This document shows positions 8,519 through 42,087 of a DNA stretch of 64,000 nt, one piece after another. This DNA is from an uncultured Bacilli bacterium (GTDB taxonomy: Bacteria > Bacillota_I > Bacilli_A > RF39 > UBA660), in contig CALVVF010000003.1 in NCBI GenBank assembly GCA_944363785.1, positions 7,011 to 71,010 on the forward strand, read 5' to 3'. The notes beneath the pieces were generated by a model. That model was not told where the DNA came from and ran no database searches. It worked only from the letters and a program-made list of their open reading frames with translations. The first letter of the stretch is position 1; every line of letters begins with the position of its first letter. The position numbers and the translations under genes were made by a program.

Positions 8519-8578
8519 TTTTTTCTATTTTTTCTTATTTTCATCCTTTAACTAAGCAAATTCCTAGTATATAAAAAA
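8519..8578. repeat. about 60-bp repeat, copy 1 (near-identical to 39890-39940)
   Basis: The two copies share TTTTCTATTTTTTCTT(A/G)TTTTCA(T/G)CCTTTAACTAAGCAAATTCCTAGTATATAAAAAA with only two mismatches. Confidence 0.8.
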
Positions 8579-8624
8579 GTAACATACCTTTTTGGATATG
8601 CTACTTTGAATTATACATTGAATT

Positions 8625-8873
8625 TTAATCTCCACCAAAAATATCAAATATCTCTCCTAGAAAAGACTCTCTTTTTCTTCCACCTTCTCGATAATTATCT
8701 TTGTCTTTCTTACTTTTTTGTGGAGTTGTTTCTTCTCTTTCTTCATGGTTCATTAGCTTTTCTAATTCACCACGATCTAACCAAATTCCTCTACATTCTG
8801 GGCAATAGTCAATTTCAACACCACGTTTTTCAGACATTAATAATGTTACATCTTTACATACTGGACATTTCAT
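8625..8873 (-). CDS. zinc-ribbon (zf-TFIIB-like) domain protein
   Basis: It has paired CPxC motifs (MKCPVCK..DYCPECRGIWLD). The start is set at the ATG 8873, which has the RBS GAGGAGG; the track ORF had a 20-aa extension. Confidence 0.65.
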   Translation of the reverse strand: MKCPVCKDVTLLMSEKRGVEIDYCPECRGIWLDRGELEKLMNHEEREETTPQKSKKDKDNYREGGRKRESFLGEIFDIFGGD

Positions 8874-9089
8874 ATTTTTCCTCCTCTGTTGTATTATATC
8901 ATATTCTTTATTTTTAAGTAATTTTCTTTCCAATCTTCTATCATTTTTTTCCTATTCATTCTAAATTATAAACTATCTTTCTAATAAGTAGGTATCTACT
9001 AAAAAGGAGAACAACTTTTAATATTCGTTTTTCGCATAAAAACAAGTATGCATGATTGGCATACTATAGAATATTGAATGGTGATAATG

Positions 9090-37118: not shown

Positions 37119-37589
37119 ATGAATTATTCTTTACCTGAATTTACCTTGGAGCGAGTTGATTTCTTCGCAGAAGAACACATTCGTTACATTGAGGGATTAA
37201 TTACTGATCCTGAAGTAAAAAGGTTTCTTCCTTATTTTGAACACGGATTATTTATTTCTAAAAATATTGGATTATTAAATTCTCATTATGTTCTGGTTAA
37301 AGATCAACAACCAATGGGATATGTTTATTTTAGTGCTCCTTTTATGGAGAACAATCAATTAAATGCCGAAGTTCGCTACATCATTGATCCTGCTTATCGT
37401 CATCAGGGTCTAGGTAAAAAAGCAGTACAGCAAAGTACTGATTTTGTTCTCAGCCATGAGAATATTTCTAATTTGCGGGCATTTGTTCATCCTGATAATT
37501 TGAGTAGTCTTTCGGTTATTCAAGCCGCAGGTTTTTATGAAACCGATCAAAATATAGATGGTATTGGATTTACTAAGCCTAGAAAATAA
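37119..37589 (+). CDS. GNAT-family N-acetyltransferase
   Basis: YIIDPAYRHQGLGKKAV is present. Confidence 0.75.
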   Translation: MNYSLPEFTLERVDFFAEEHIRYIEGLITDPEVKRFLPYFEHGLFISKNIGLLNSHYVLVKDQQPMGYVYFSAPFMENNQLNAEVRYIIDPAYRHQGLGKKAVQQSTDFVLSHENISNLRAFVHPDNLSSLSVIQAAGFYETDQNIDGIGFTKPRK

Positions 37590-37593
37590 TCAT

Positions 37594-37630
37594 AAGAAAA
37601 GGTGTAGCTTTATAGGTTACACCTTTTATT
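37594..37630. terminator. bidirectional hairpin between GNAT (+) and spo0A (-)
   Basis: AAAGGTGTA-N11-TACACCTTT. Confidence 0.5.
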
Positions 37631-38399
37631 TACAGTAATCTTTTTGAAATTCCAATCGTAGTTTGTCAGCGACAGTAACAATGAATTCGGAATTGGTTGG
37701 TTTGGCTTTATCAATATCGACACTATGGCCAAATATCTCTTCCATTAAATCCCAATCCCCACGATTCCAACTCACCTCGATCGCATGACGAATGGCTCTT
37801 TCGACCCGAGAAACGGTCGTATTAAATTTTTTCGCAATATCTGGATATAATTCCTTGGTAATGCCACCAATTACTTCTGGTCGCTCATAGAGAATAGAAA
37901 TTCCTTCTCTGATATATTGATATCCCTTTATATGGGATGGTATTCCTAATTCATGTAATATTTTAGTAATCGAAATCTGTAAGTTATTATGGTAAATATC
38001 GATTGAAGCATTGCTGTAGGTTTTACTATCGGTACAATCTTCTATTCTTCGTTCTAGATCAGATAATTCAAACGGCTTTAAGATGAAATAATTAATTCCA
38101 TACTCAGATACTCTTCTAATCATCTCTTGTGCATTATAAGATGTTAGTACAATTACCTTCTTATCGATCTGTTCTTTTCTCATACTCTCTAGGATAGAGA
38201 GTCCATCTTTTTTCGGCATAATCAAGTCTAAGATGATGACATCATACTCGTTTTGCCTTGTTTTAATTAATTCTAAACCTCTTTCTCCATCATTTGCTTC
38301 TAATACTAATTCGATATTAGCGTGATCTTTAAAGTACTCCTTAATCATGCTTACTAGGTCGACATTATCATCGATCATCAGTACTCTGACTTTATTCAT
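37626..38399 (-). CDS. spo0A: sporulation master regulator Spo0A (receiver plus Spo0A_C)
   Basis: The receiver has [12 protein letters not shown]. The C-terminus [58 protein letters not shown] is diagnostic of Spo0A. Confidence 0.9.
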
Positions 38400-38525
38400 A
38401 TTTTCTCCTTTCGTACTCCACGCAAGTATTATTATACACTATATTATTACAAATAGATACAGTGAAAATTGTAAGCTTTTGTCAAATGATGTCGAGTATG
38501 AGAAAATAACCATATAAATTCTCAT

Positions 38526-38556
38526 TTTAGAACAAAATGAAAAATCAATTTTTCAT
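38526..38556 (-). terminator. rho-independent terminator after the tnpB 3' structured region
   Basis: On the minus strand it reads ATGAAAAAT-TG-ATTTTTCAT followed by TTTGTTC. Confidence 0.55.
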
Positions 38557-38700
38557 GTCCCAGTCGTTGCCTCCTGGGCTTTCTGCTTCATAGATAAAGT
38601 AACCTTTATTCTCCACAGACTTAACATCCGATAGTCGCTACCGTAGTTTTTTGTTCTTATTTGTTTTCTATTTTTTCTATATGAATTCTTTCATATACAT
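38557..38700 (-). ncRNA. candidate TnpB-associated omega-RNA (reRNA) scaffold derived from the IS right end
   Basis: This is a GC-rich segment in an AT-rich genome. It has hairpins, including GCCCAGGAGGCAACGACTGGGAC, and sits at and just beyond the tnpB 3' end, ahead of a terminator. Confidence 0.3.
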
Positions 38701-39816
38701 CTTTATTCCTTCAAATAATATATTCATACTAGCATTAATATCTCTATCATGATAACTTCCACATTCTGGACATAGCCAATTTCTAACTGATAAATCTTTT
38801 ACTTTCTCATTTTTATACCCGCATCTACTACATTCCTGACTACTCGGATAATAACTATCTATCTGAATGTATCGTTTTCCATAATACTTAGCTTTATATT
38901 CTAATATACGACATATCTCAGATAAACTGACATCAGTTAGATATTTAGAAAACTTCTTTTCTTCGATCATCTCTTTTGCCTTTAATGTTTCACTTACCAC
39001 AATATCATTTTCTAATACTAGTTTTTTCGTTATTTGATGAATAAAATGTTTTCTCGCATTCTTTAACTTCTGAAATAAAATGGCTAACTTTCTCTTCGTT
39101 TTATAGTAATTACTACTTCCTTTTTCTCTCCTGGATAATTCTCTTTGTTTCCTTTTTATTCTTTTTTCATATTTTTCTATGATTTTCTCATTCTTTACCT
39201 TTTCACCATCACTTGTAATCACAACATCTTTTATTCCTAAATCAATTCCTACTATAGTTTTAGGAATAATTTTTGGCACGATATGATTTACCTCTACTAA
39301 TACACTAGCATAGTACTTACCACTTGAATTCTCGCTAATCGTCGCATTAATTATTCTTCCAGGTAAAGTTTCTAAATTCCTATATCCTCTAATCTTTACT
39401 TCTTTTAATTTAGGAAGAATAATCACTTTTCTTTTTAAATCTACTCTAATATTTTCATACCTTTTTTCTTTATAATTATTCGTAATATAATTCGTTCGAT
39501 AACTTCTTTTAGAACTATACTTTCCTTTAAATTTTGGATAATTTGTTTGTTTATGAAAATAACGTTTAAATGCATCATCTAAATCAAATAAACTACATCT
39601 TAAACTACAAGAGTCCACTTCCTTTAAAAATGGATATTCTGAATATAAATTAGGTAAATCTTTAATCGTATCAAAACAAGTTGTATTTTCTTTTTTTCTT
39701 TTTTCAAGATAGTAATTATAAACTAGTCTTGTACAGCCAAATGTTTTTTGTATCATAATGATTTGTTTATCATTTGGATAAAGACGAAATTGGTAACTTT
39801 TATACATCATACTCAT
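38677..39816 (-). CDS. tnpB: IS605-family TnpB (OrfB) RNA-guided endonuclease, lone
   Basis: The N-terminal OrfB helix-turn-helix region is present (SYQFRLYPNDKQ). RuvC-I is GIDLGIKDV. The zinc ribbon is CSRCGYKN..CPECGSYHDRD. RuvC-III is DINASMNI. There is no adjacent tnpA. Confidence 0.85.
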   Translation of the reverse strand: MSMMYKSYQFRLYPNDKQIIMIQKTFGCTRLVYNYYLEKRKKENTTCFDTIKDLPNLYSEYPFLKEVDSCSLRCSLFDLDDAFKRYFHKQTNYPKFKGKYSSKRSYRTNYITNNYKEKRYENIRVDLKRKVIILPKLKEVKIRGYRNLETLPGRIINATISENSSGKYYASVLVEVNHIVPKIIPKTIVGIDLGIKDVVITSDGEKVKNEKIIEKYEKRIKRKQRELSRREKGSSNYYKTKRKLAILFQKLKNARKHFIHQITKKLVLENDIVVSETLKAKEMIEEKKFSKYLTDVSLSEICRILEYKAKYYGKRYIQIDSYYPSSQECSRCGYKNEKVKDLSVRNWLCPECGSYHDRDINASMNILFEGIKMYMKEFI

Positions 39817-39889
39817 GTCTATCCCTCCCTGTTGTGAATGGTTAATAGGAGTTTATCAAACAAATGTACGCAAGTCAAGTGGATTATAA

Positions 39890-39940
39890 AATTTTCTATT
39901 TTTTCTTGTTTTCAGCCTTTAACTAAGCAAATTCCTAGTA
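39890..39940. repeat. about 60-bp repeat, copy 2 (upstream of tnpB, downstream of the tpiA-coupled small gene)
   Basis: It is near-identical to 8519-8578. Confidence 0.8.
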
Positions 39941-39987
39941 TATAAAAAAAATGTCTTGGATTATCCAAACAAAAAGAATCACTGTTT

Positions 39988-40149
39988 TTAGCGATTCTTG
40001 GATAAAGCTTGAGAAGCCATAGCAACGATTAATAGTATTACAACCATAATCATAATCCATAAAAGTGGACTGTCATAATGACTCTCAAAAAAGTTTTCCA
40101 ATTCTTTAAAGCTTCGATCTAGCCAATCAAATAGTGCATTCCCTATCAT
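39988..40149 (-). CDS. small tail-anchored membrane protein (53 aa), translationally coupled to tpiA
   Basis: Manual translation gives MIGNALFDWLDRSFKELENFFESHYDSPLLWIMIMVVILLIVAMASQALSKNR. Its ATG overlaps the tpiA TGA as ATGA, and the GGAGGAAGAAG in the tpiA 3' end serves as the RBS. Confidence 0.5.
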   Translation of the reverse strand: MIGNALFDWLDRSFKELENFFESHYDSPLLWIMIMVVILLIVAMASQALSKNR

Positions 40150-40862
40150 ACTTCTTCCTCCATTTTCTCTATTATTACTCGCAATTTTTCTATATCCAGG
40201 CTTGTACCTCCAATTAGATAACCATCTATATTAGGCACTTGATTTAATTCATCGATATTATTTATAGATACACTACCACCGTACAAGACTCGGCAAAAAA
40301 TTTGATATTTTTTATGGACATAATCTTTAATCATTTGAGTAATCGTCGTAATTTCTTCTGTTGTGGGGATTTTTCCTGTTCCAATTGCCCAAATAGGTTC
40401 ATAAGCAATGATTACTTGATCTAAGTTTACTTGATTAGTGAAAGCACTATCAATCTCATTCATGAGAATGTTTTCACGGTCGTTAATTTCTTCTTCTTTT
40501 TCTCCTATACATAAAACGGGCACCATGGCATTTTCTAAAATTAATTTTACTTTCTGATTAATCATCTCTTCTGTTTCATTTAGAATATTTCTTCGTTCGG
40601 AATGCCCGACAATAACATATTTAACATTCAGTGATTTTAATTGCTGGATGGCAATTTCTCCCGTTAAGGCACCCATATTGCGATCGGCTACATTTTGGGC
40701 TCCTAGGGAGTAATTAACTTGATTTTGAAAATAGGGAAGATAGATACTACTAGGACAAAATACTAGTTCATTACTTGATTTTAACGTACTTATTTGGTCT
40801 ACATAGTTTTCTATTTCTTTCTTAGTTAAATTCATTTTGTGATTACTTATTATCCACTTCAT
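40146..40862 (-). CDS. tpiA: triosephosphate isomerase
   Basis: The motifs GHSERR and AYEPIWAIGTGK are present. The ATG at 40862 has the RBS AGGTGA; the track start was GTG 40871. Confidence 0.9.
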   Translation of the reverse strand: MKWIISNHKMNLTKKEIENYVDQISTLKSSNELVFCPSSIYLPYFQNQVNYSLGAQNVADRNMGALTGEIAIQQLKSLNVKYVIVGHSERRNILNETEEMINQKVKLILENAMVPVLCIGEKEEEINDRENILMNEIDSAFTNQVNLDQVIIAYEPIWAIGTGKIPTTEEITTITQMIKDYVHKKYQIFCRVLYGGSVSINNIDELNQVPNIDGYLIGGTSLDIEKLRVIIEKMEEEV

Positions 40863-42087
40863 CTTTATCACCTTTAATTTTATCTACTATTTTTCCGATT
40901 ACACCTAAACGATTACTCTTATGTTTTATCGCATATGTATATACATCTAATACAGACTCAGCAAAATATTTTGAACTGTAGCGTTCAGAATTAATTCTCG
41001 CTTGTTTAGAGAGTTTACCTACTTGTTTTTTATCTTTATATAATTCTTTAATAATTTCTTTACATTCTTTTTTGGTCTTAAAAATTCTACCATTTAGTCC
41101 ATCAATTACCACATTAGCAAAGCTTTCATCGTCAATACAGATTGGTGTTACTTCTGAGGCCATTGCTTCAATTACTGTTAATCCTTGTGTTTCTGAATGA
41201 GAGGCAGTTAAAAAAATGTTTGCTAAATGATAATAGTATGGCATTTCTTCCCATTTTGCCTTTCCCGTCATGATAACATGTTCTGACAAGTTTTCCTTTT
41301 GGATATATTCCTGATATTCTTCCATATCTGGTCCATCTCCAACGATCAATAATTTTAGTTTTGGACAGCTAGGAATTAAATCTTTTACTACTTCCATTAG
41401 AAAGACGATATTTTTTTCTTGGGCTAAACGTCCTACGAAAATAGCTACAAAATCATCATCTTTTAGGCCTTGGTTTTTTCTCAATTTTGCTAGTTTACTG
41501 GCATCTATGTTTTCTTGATAAAACCTCTCTAACTCTATTCCCGTTGGGATAATATGAATATTCTTATCTACTTTGTATTTTTCTTTGAATAGATCATAAG
41601 TTTTCTTAGTAGGAACAATTAACTCACTAGCGGTTTTATCGCAATAAAATAGTGTTAAATATTCGACAATCTTTTTACTAGACTTATTGAAATATCCTTT
41701 AGTCACATAATGAATATAATCTTCATACATCGTATGATAAGTATGAACTAAAGGAATATCTAATTGAAAAGCCAAAAGTCTAGCAAATGTACCTATCGCA
41801 AATTCAGTTTGAGAATGAATAATATCTAAGTTCCAATTCTTAATAATATTCACAGCTTTAATCGGATAGATAGCTGTCAACCTAGAATCATAGATTCCTG
41901 TTGGGATACCGGGTATACGTAAGACATGTTCCTTCTCATCATAATCATAGTGAAAGCTTTCCAAGTTAGCTGTGACTACATATACTGTATGTCCCAATTT
42001 TTCCAAGGCCTCTTTTAACATTACTTCACTTGTGACTAAACCACTAATATAAGGGGTATAAGTTTCTGTAAAAATTCCTATTCTCAT
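40843..42087 (-). CDS. GT4-family glycosyltransferase (glycolipid/diacylglycerol glycosyltransferase-like)
   Basis: It has the GT-B fold with an EX7E-type C-terminal region (SHSETQGLTVIEAMA). It overlaps the upstream gene by 4 bp. Confidence 0.7.
   Translation of the reverse strand: MRIGIFTETYTPYISGLVTSEVMLKEALEKLGHTVYVVTANLESFHYDYDEKEHVLRIPGIPTGIYDSRLTAIYPIKAVNIIKNWNLDIIHSQTEFAIGTFARLLAFQLDIPLVHTYHTMYEDYIHYVTKGYFNKSSKKIVEYLTLFYCDKTASELIVPTKKTYDLFKEKYKVDKNIHIIPTGIELERFYQENIDASKLAKLRKNQGLKDDDFVAIFVGRLAQEKNIVFLMEVVKDLIPSCPKLKLLIVGDGPDMEEYQEYIQKENLSEHVIMTGKAKWEEMPYYYHLANIFLTASHSETQGLTVIEAMASEVTPICIDDESFANVVIDGLNGRIFKTKKECKEIIKELYKDKKQVGKLSKQARINSERYSSKYFAESVLDVYTYAIKHKSNRLGVIGKIVDKIKGDKDEVDNK

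Follow-up and report, generated by a model that had tools for sequence, protein, structure and literature searches.

Within a 64,000-nucleotide (nt) stretch of contig CALVVF010000003.1, from an uncultured gut Bacillota genome (hereafter the window), a mobile element lies upstream of the sporulation gene spo0A. The segment 38530..39943 on the minus strand is very probably a non-autonomous, tnpA-less insertion sequence (IS) of the IS200/IS605 family and of ISDra2 type, with an intact TnpB and a conserved omega-RNA scaffold. It is an ordinary but intact TnpB-only member of the IS605 family. With this element comes a clearly bounded family of TnpB and omega-RNA from uncultured gut Bacilli, for which the ends, the scaffold structure, a candidate guide and a probable T-rich transposon-associated motif (TAM) are defined. 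Beyond the textbook layout of ISDra2, it features a clade-specific hairpin before the guide and terminator-adjacent insertion sites; otherwise it is as knowledge of IS605 elements predicts. A first-pass annotation had placed a lone TnpB with a structured 3' tail at 38526-39940, within a few nucleotides of the true ends, and had advised looking for other copies to define them. Such copies were found, and both ends are delimited by conservation. The parts of the element are the following.

38530..39943, minus strand: very probable IS200/IS605-family element without tnpA, ~1414 bp, made up of left end, tnpB, omega-RNA and right end
39817..39943, minus strand: non-coding left end, conserved in loci L001-L004, L008 and L009
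38677..39816, minus strand: tnpB open reading frame (ORF), 379 amino acids (aa), predicted RNA-guided nuclease with RuvC triad D192/E276/D359 and zinc ribbon
38649..38676, minus strand: A-rich variable linker after the stop codon, with many indels between copies
38530..38648, minus strand: core of the omega-RNA scaffold, 119 nt, five helices

The ends were set where independent copies, unrelated in their flanks, begin and cease to be alike. Species-representative genomes, when scanned, yielded 17 loci, 16 of which encode a TnpB 85-91% identical to that of the window; the remaining one (L017) is a distant match with 40% TnpB identity. At least 10 of the 16 close loci, copies or fragments, belong to one uncultured Bacilli metagenome-assembled genome (MAG), and many of them end contigs, as repeats do. 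Metagenomes, scanned as well, contributed another 80 loci, in which TnpB is 36-56% identical. In the 3'-flank alignment, the copies are alike for 147 nt beyond the tnpB stop and the likeness ends abruptly at ...CATTTTGTTC (38530). The right-end consensus is ...CATGAAAAATT(T/G)ATTTTTCATTTTGTTC, and beyond 38530 each copy differs. The sequence after GTTC is unrelated among 13 right-end-bearing related loci and the window copy, and the window copy recurs in L098 and L099. Since copies with unrelated flanks keep the tail and then stop sharply, the tail is to be counted with the element, not with spo0A as its leader. At the other side, conservation in the 5'-flank alignment begins within a run of T, followed by ATATACTAGGAATTTGCTT, so that the left boundary is uncertain by a few nucleotides owing to the adjoining T-run. 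The two element ends read ATATACTAGG... and ...CATTTTGTTC. No direct repeat is found in its flanks, the ends are sharp, and the insertion lies 3' of a T-run in 9/9 left flanks. The tail might also have been ordinary spo0A upstream DNA shared with relatives lacking tnpB. A locus located by exact-sequence look-up of the window Spo0A (L100, Logan ERR4096597) speaks otherwise: its Spo0A is 100% identical, and it holds a small ORF, ~100 nt and then spo0A, with no tnpB and no tail.

The protein bears out the TnpB architecture of RuvC-I, zinc ribbon and RuvC-III noticed at first pass, by its motifs as well as by Pfam and NCBIfam matches. The motifs GIDLGIKDV, DRDINASMNI and CxxC...CxxC (C329/C332, C349/C352) are all present. 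HTH_OrfB_IS605 (PF12323), OrfB_IS605 (PF01385) and Cas12f1-like_TNB (PF07282) match above their gathering scores with E values of 1e-16 to 1e-22, and the domain order is N-terminal HTH/WED-REC, split RuvC (OrfB_IS605) and zinc-ribbon TNB. The NCBIfam model guided_TnpB scores 306 bits (cutoff 100), and IS200_TnpB scores 405 bits, slightly below its strict cutoff of 425. The protein aligns end to end with the ISDra2 TnpB structures 8H1J and 8EXA (E ~2e-70), and D192, E276 and D359 fall on the GVDVGIKD, TEHL and HDRDENA motifs of 8H1J. Judged from its sequence, the window TnpB retains intact catalytic residues and is predicted to perform RNA-guided, TAM-dependent cleavage of double-stranded DNA. 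Exact-sequence look-ups of this TnpB and of P0001 gave no record. Between full-length copies the synonymous divergence (dS) of the ORF is 0.24-0.59, with a ratio of non-synonymous to synonymous divergence (dN/dS) of ~0.12. The 119-nt core diverges by 0.03-0.09 per site, 3-13x slower than the synonymous sites of the ORF. The low divergence of the tail and the low dN/dS therefore indicate that both ORF and tail are under purifying selection.

The tail is a conserved, structured and covarying scaffold that belongs to the element and ends in GUUC. From the stop codon to the element end (147 nt), it folds with -35.4 kcal/mol (z = -4.1 versus shuffles). The minimum free energy (MFE) structure of the core equals the hand-drawn one, and RNAalifold gives the same. 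Its parts, in 5' to 3' order, are given below.

38649..38656, minus strand: GAACAAAA, in the linker, able to pair with the 3'-terminal UUUUGUUC
38643-38638 with 38634-38629, minus strand: helix A
38619-38615 with 38586-38582, minus strand: helix B
38612-38604 with 38599-38592, minus strand: helix C
38578-38574 with 38563-38559, minus strand: helix D
38556-38549 with 38544-38537, minus strand: helix E, the A/U hairpin ATGAAAAA-TTGA-TTTTTCAT (38537..38556), inserted in this clade only, after helix D and ahead of the terminal GUUC
38536-38530, minus strand: 3' tail UUUGUUC

When 26 distinct tails are aligned by MAFFT without fitting to a model, the paired share of cells is 86%, compared with 37-50% once the partners are slid, and double-sided changes occur at 17/32 pairs. 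An alignment of 59 hits fitted to covariance model R1, which leans toward the model, has 85% of cells paired and compensatory changes at 30/32 pairs. Across the covariation tests the slid controls reach 37-51%, and none of 500 shuffles attains the observed values. On a third alignment, RNAalifold recovers the same five helices. The compensatory changes, which span relatives with TnpB 36-90% identical, include CGGUAG/CUAUCG versus GGGCAG/CUGCCC, AUAAAG/CUUUAU versus AUAGAG/CUCUAU, UCUG/CAGA versus CCUG/CAGG and changes of the CUAU/AUAG type. Moreover, G-U pairs are frequent in the 59-hit alignment (24 at one pair and 37 at another). The tail was also searched, by nhmmer profile and then by R1, in the 97 related loci L001-L097. 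R1 matches on the plus strand directly after tnpB in 56 of them, down to 36-40% TnpB identity; one further weak match (L091, E 0.03) lies upstream of tnpB, and all 58 R1 matches in related loci are on the tnpB strand. In the window, R1 has a single match, at the scaffold, with 136 bits. A right-end-derived omega-RNA placed after tnpB, as first proposed, is thereby supported: the tail ends at the right end, covaries and tracks tnpB, and the conserved structure across related TnpB loci, whose absence would have told against it, is found.

Some details of the proposal had to be corrected. The core is somewhat enriched in GC (39.5%, 93rd percentile of windows), but "conspicuously GC-rich" overstates the case, as the whole tail has 34.7% (70th percentile) against a window mean of 31.6%. 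One of the two hairpins pointed out, GCCCAGG...CTGGGAC, is the true helix D. The other, CTACGGTAG, was rejected, because its 1-nt loop is impossible; its bases belong to helix A, and the real helix is CGGTAG-CGA-CTATCG. A closing helix of GAACAAAA with UUUUGUUC appears in the single-sequence MFE structure, and three one-sided changes (L005, L007 and L013) leave it paired via G-U. RNAalifold does not predict this helix, which is a weakly supported candidate for the pseudoknot equivalent.

The closest parallel is ISDra2 of Deinococcus radiodurans. Its TnpB is homologous over the full length, with the same catalytic triad, and its RNA likewise sits at the tnpB 3' end and reaches the right end, with a core of ~116-119 nt. 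Helix B corresponds to stem 2 of the ISDra2 omega-RNA, helix C to stem 3, helix D to stem 4 with its loop, and the terminal GUUC to the pseudoknot strand. These correspondences were examined on a Deinococcus plasmid locus (L104) whose TnpB is 82% identical to that of ISDra2. The 116-nt stretch before ...GGTTCAA there matches 31/35 of the nucleotide identities quoted for the ISDra2 omega-RNA by Nakagawa et al. (PMC10097598). L104 and the window scaffold share the UGGAGA and GAAG motifs, stems 2-4 and the terminal GUUCA. In the cryo-EM structure, UGGAGA/GAAG and parts of stems 2-3 contact TnpB (PMC10097598). With default filters R1 has no match on the Deinococcus and Bacillus tnpB loci L104-L106; with filters off, it has a weak match at the correct place in L104 (19.9 bits, E 0.003). 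Unlike ISDra2, the window element has no tnpA, and its scaffold lies wholly downstream of the stop codon, whereas that of ISDra2 overlaps the ORF. It further differs in the extra A/U helix E between stem 4 and the GUUC strand, in a short stem 3b, in ending at GUUC instead of GUUCAA, and in an apparent T-run TAM instead of TTGAT.

The candidate guide and TAM lie in host DNA just outside the two ends.

38514..38529, minus strand: predicted 16-nt guide TAAAATGAGAATTTAT, host DNA at the right end, placed by analogy with ISDra2, register uncertain by ~2 nt
39944..39951, minus strand: T8 run in host DNA, probable TAM (TTTTT-like), directly 5' of the left end, with a small host hairpin before the T-run

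As helix E is followed by 7 more nt of element, the guide would begin at 38529 and not before the hairpin. The guide 16-mer is matched exactly nowhere else in the window, and near-matches are at chance level; the lack of a second target there is as expected. For the TAM, insertion sites were compared between the window (39944..39970 and 8579..8612) and L001-L004, L008, L009 and L019. Every one of these nine independent left flanks ends in at least 6 T (run of 6-8; in L019, T7 then C), and nothing is conserved upstream. In 6/9 insertions a hairpin with a free energy between -4 and -10 kcal/mol abuts the T-run, an arrangement that intrinsic terminators have. From these flanking sequences, host terminators seem to be where the element family inserts, at their distal end, and its TAM would accordingly be TTTTT-like. 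No literature on TnpB insertion at intrinsic terminators was found. In L100 the site is empty, but this allele has diverged, and the TAM cannot be read from it to the nucleotide.

The second window site holds a truncated left-end copy.

8521..8578, minus strand: 58 nt, sharing 96.6% identity with 39892..39949 and lacking tnpB and omega-RNA

This stub directly follows the hairpin GTAGCATA-N10-TATGTTAC and TTTTTT, downstream of a 102-aa zinc-ribbon ORF (8625..8933).

The left end of the full copy holds a putative promoter, identified by a consensus scan.

39878..39850, minus strand: promoter-like site, TTGACT, 17 nt, TAAACT, with an upstream TG

For the TnpA site, a hairpin in the left end (CTAGG...CTTAG) came into question and was set aside, as sister-copy substitutions give it no support. 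By analogy with ISDra2 and GstIS605 (PMC10097598, PMC10055086, PMC10278001), tnpB would be transcribed from the promoter-like site, and the transcript would continue past the scaffold and take in 16 nt or more of the host DNA beside it. TnpB would then bind the 3' region of its own mRNA and trim the 5' side into omega-RNA. The resulting ribonucleoprotein would cut DNA carrying the T-rich TAM followed by a guide match. Such a target is the scarless donor joint that excision of the element by a TnpA acting in trans would leave, and cutting this joint would therefore favour re-copying of the element by recombination, i.e. its retention.

The nearest relatives with a transposase of their own are L021-L034, on human-gut metagenome contigs, where TnpB is ~46% identical and a Y1 TnpA (PF01797) is encoded directly upstream of tnpB. 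They form the closest tnpA-bearing subfamily, which is multicopy and autonomous and has a homologous omega-RNA. TTGAAAT, similar to the TTGAT of ISDra2, is conserved before their left end, and their right end is ...GGGTAGTTCAC. Their left-end hairpin CCCACTGGCTTTAGACGGTGGG mirrors the right-end hairpin, which is helix D of the omega-RNA. Matching hairpins at the left and right ends, together with TnpA, represent the classical IS605 design. Compared with the window clade, these relatives use a TTGAA-type TAM and another left end.

Helix E is the most distinctive part of the scaffold. It had been taken for a clean terminator at the RNA end, which it is not: the A/U hairpin is weak and lies within the element, 7 nt short of the end and upstream of the guide. 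Its stability is ~-5.5 kcal/mol (z = -1.6), and a terminator scan did not call it. With covarying stems, it occurs only in the window clade, that is, the window family, L018, L045 and L019 (TnpB at least 51% identical), with the stem variants ATGAAAAAT/ATTTTTCAT, AAAAACAAAC/GTTTGTTTTT, GAAATAAAAT/ATTTTATTTC and TGTCAAAAT/ATTTTGGCA. There, helix E is followed by UUU(U)GUUC. About 40 more distant relatives lack it; in these, (U)AGUUCA(C/A) comes straight after helix D, with the flank behind it. The distance of 7 nt from helix E to the end resembles the hairpin plus 8 nt of canonical relatives. Helix E may be an RNA element, a leaky terminator that attenuates read-through, or a subterminal DNA hairpin for a trans-acting transposase. 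A copy in the Bacilli MAG (L011:2792-2904) has the right end ...ATTTATTTTGTCC instead of ...ATTTATTTTTCATTTTGTTC; it is probably decaying, as half of its helix E is gone.

Several observations weigh against an intact, guide-producing element of the ISDra2 type. No tnpA homologue is found in the 64-kb window by tblastn with 11 Y1 TnpA sequences, and a homology search finds no TnpA in loci L001-L016, L018, L019 and L045, which make up the window clade. The element is therefore a non-autonomous member of its family, which may or may not be mobile at present. The -10 of the window copy (TAAACT) is weaker than that of sister copies (TATAGT). Helix E with UUUUGUUC could end some transcripts before the guide. 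An Rfam search of 37500..41000 (E <= 10) places no family on the tail and gives only two chance-level matches outside it. For helix A and the pseudoknot/triplex, a one-to-one mapping onto the ISDra2 structure was not obtained, and the proposed homology is confined to stems 2-4, the motifs and GUUC. Furthermore, no precise empty site was recovered: contigs of the same population, found by look-up of the neighbouring 53-aa ORF, all break inside the IS. The expected joint would be the left flank (T-run) plus TAAAATGAGAATTT, and because no such site was found, the TAM and left boundary stay approximate.

Some of these points would suit a silent relic, intact in sequence but no longer expressed or mobile, in which no transposase is at hand and helix E ends transcripts before the guide. 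Besides the lack of tnpA in the window and in related loci of the clade, the weaker -10 and the hairpin with U-tract ahead of the guide, this account can draw on the second window copy, already decayed to a 58-nt left-end stub. Against it, the ORF is full-length with all catalytic residues, purifying selection acts on ORF and tail across copies, and helix E is weak and escapes the terminator scan. The many copies in the clade imply past mobilisation as well. A relic is thus improbable, though it deserves more credit than any other alternative considered.

The tail could instead serve mainly as a DNA-level transposon end, offering single-stranded hairpins to a Y1 TnpA and making no functional guide RNA. 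Helix D is indeed the hairpin duplicated at both ends of the tnpA-bearing subfamily, helix E has the geometry of the canonical hairpin plus 8 nt, and covariation alone cannot separate RNA from top-strand single-stranded DNA. TnpA needs only one subterminal hairpin, whereas five helices over 119 nt covary here, which makes a DNA-only end unlikely. Moreover, helices B and C, UGGAGA and GAAG match the TnpB-contacting parts of the ISDra2 omega-RNA, and G-U pairs are frequent at the two scaffold pairs counted above. Such an end is therefore given very little weight beside a scaffold that acts as RNA.

A guide that matches its own flank is a property of any IS605 copy. This counts against a domesticated, TldR-like TnpB whose guide RNA is aimed at the spo0A upstream region to regulate sporulation, a reading prompted by the place of the element, which shares its strand with spo0A and lies ~130 nt upstream, by the spo0A-proximal sequence of the predicted guide and by the lack of tnpA, and rendered scarcely credible by an intact RuvC triad where TldRs are nuclease-dead (PMC10705468), by two intact transposon ends, by a multicopy family with unrelated neighbours and guides, and by L100, whose identical Spo0A has no element beside it. 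The element resembles TldR systems in its TnpB-fold protein, 3' guide RNA, missing tnpA and position beside a regulatory gene, and differs in the intact nuclease triad, the intact ends and the multicopy family with variable context. Of the earlier verdict that the element is "non-autonomous or domesticated", the first half holds, as there is no tnpA in the 64-kb window, and the second is not supported.

An IS605-family element with tnpB alone also accords with what is known of such elements at large. Only ~25% of tnpB genes have tnpA nearby, so that a lone tnpB is the norm (PMC10055086). The IS1341-type or lone-tnpB ISGst copies of Geobacillus stearothermophilus likewise have tnpB alone between conserved ends, are multicopy, carry omega-RNA at the right end and are presumed to move by means of a trans-acting TnpA from another locus (PMC10055086). 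Unlike these, the window clade belongs to another sequence family and is without an identified cognate tnpA. The Rfam families of TnpB-associated RNA, RF03065 and RF02998 (PMC10055086), are similarly structured non-coding RNAs at the tnpB 3' end; unlike them, the window scaffold is matched by no Rfam family, and no curated model covers it.

The window clade might, on a tentative view for which the chances are low, have two linked adaptations. A T-run TAM would site copies at the distal end of host intrinsic terminators, and a terminator-like A/U hairpin before the guide would gate the guide-bearing omega-RNA and keep read-through from reaching the host genes downstream, in this case spo0A. The clade would then also provide, for AT-rich genomes, a compact nuclease whose TAM is of TTTTT type.

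The genes on both sides are as named at first pass, spo0A and tpiA being confirmed, with a further small ORF between tpiA and the element.

37626..38399, minus strand (same as tnpB): spo0A, downstream neighbour
40146..40871: tpiA, upstream neighbour
39988..40149, minus strand: 53-aa ORF, membrane-like, between tpiA and the element

The start of the 53-aa ORF overlaps the tpiA stop. Its C-terminal half is hydrophobic, and it has no Pfam match. It is found exactly in 8 contigs of the same population, with a diverged homologue at the same place in L100. When L100:560-860 is set against window 38385..40180, the small ORF is only distantly similar (51 aa versus 53 aa), and the L100 intergenic region is without the IS, the host terminator and ~40 nt of the right flank. 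These sequence differences suggest a recombination breakpoint between lineages in the spo0A upstream region.

For annotation, the segment upstream of spo0A is to be treated as mobile DNA. At 38468..38495 (minus strand), 35-60 nt downstream of the IS right end, lie TCGACA/TTCGACA motifs, with a counterpart in L100 at ~747-760. They resemble 0A boxes of Spo0A and are putative sites of this kind. Together with them occurs a promoter-like site, TCGACA, 16 nt, TACAAT. From these positions, the insertion spares the likely spo0A promoter, but it puts read-through from tnpB and the omega-RNA directly upstream of it.

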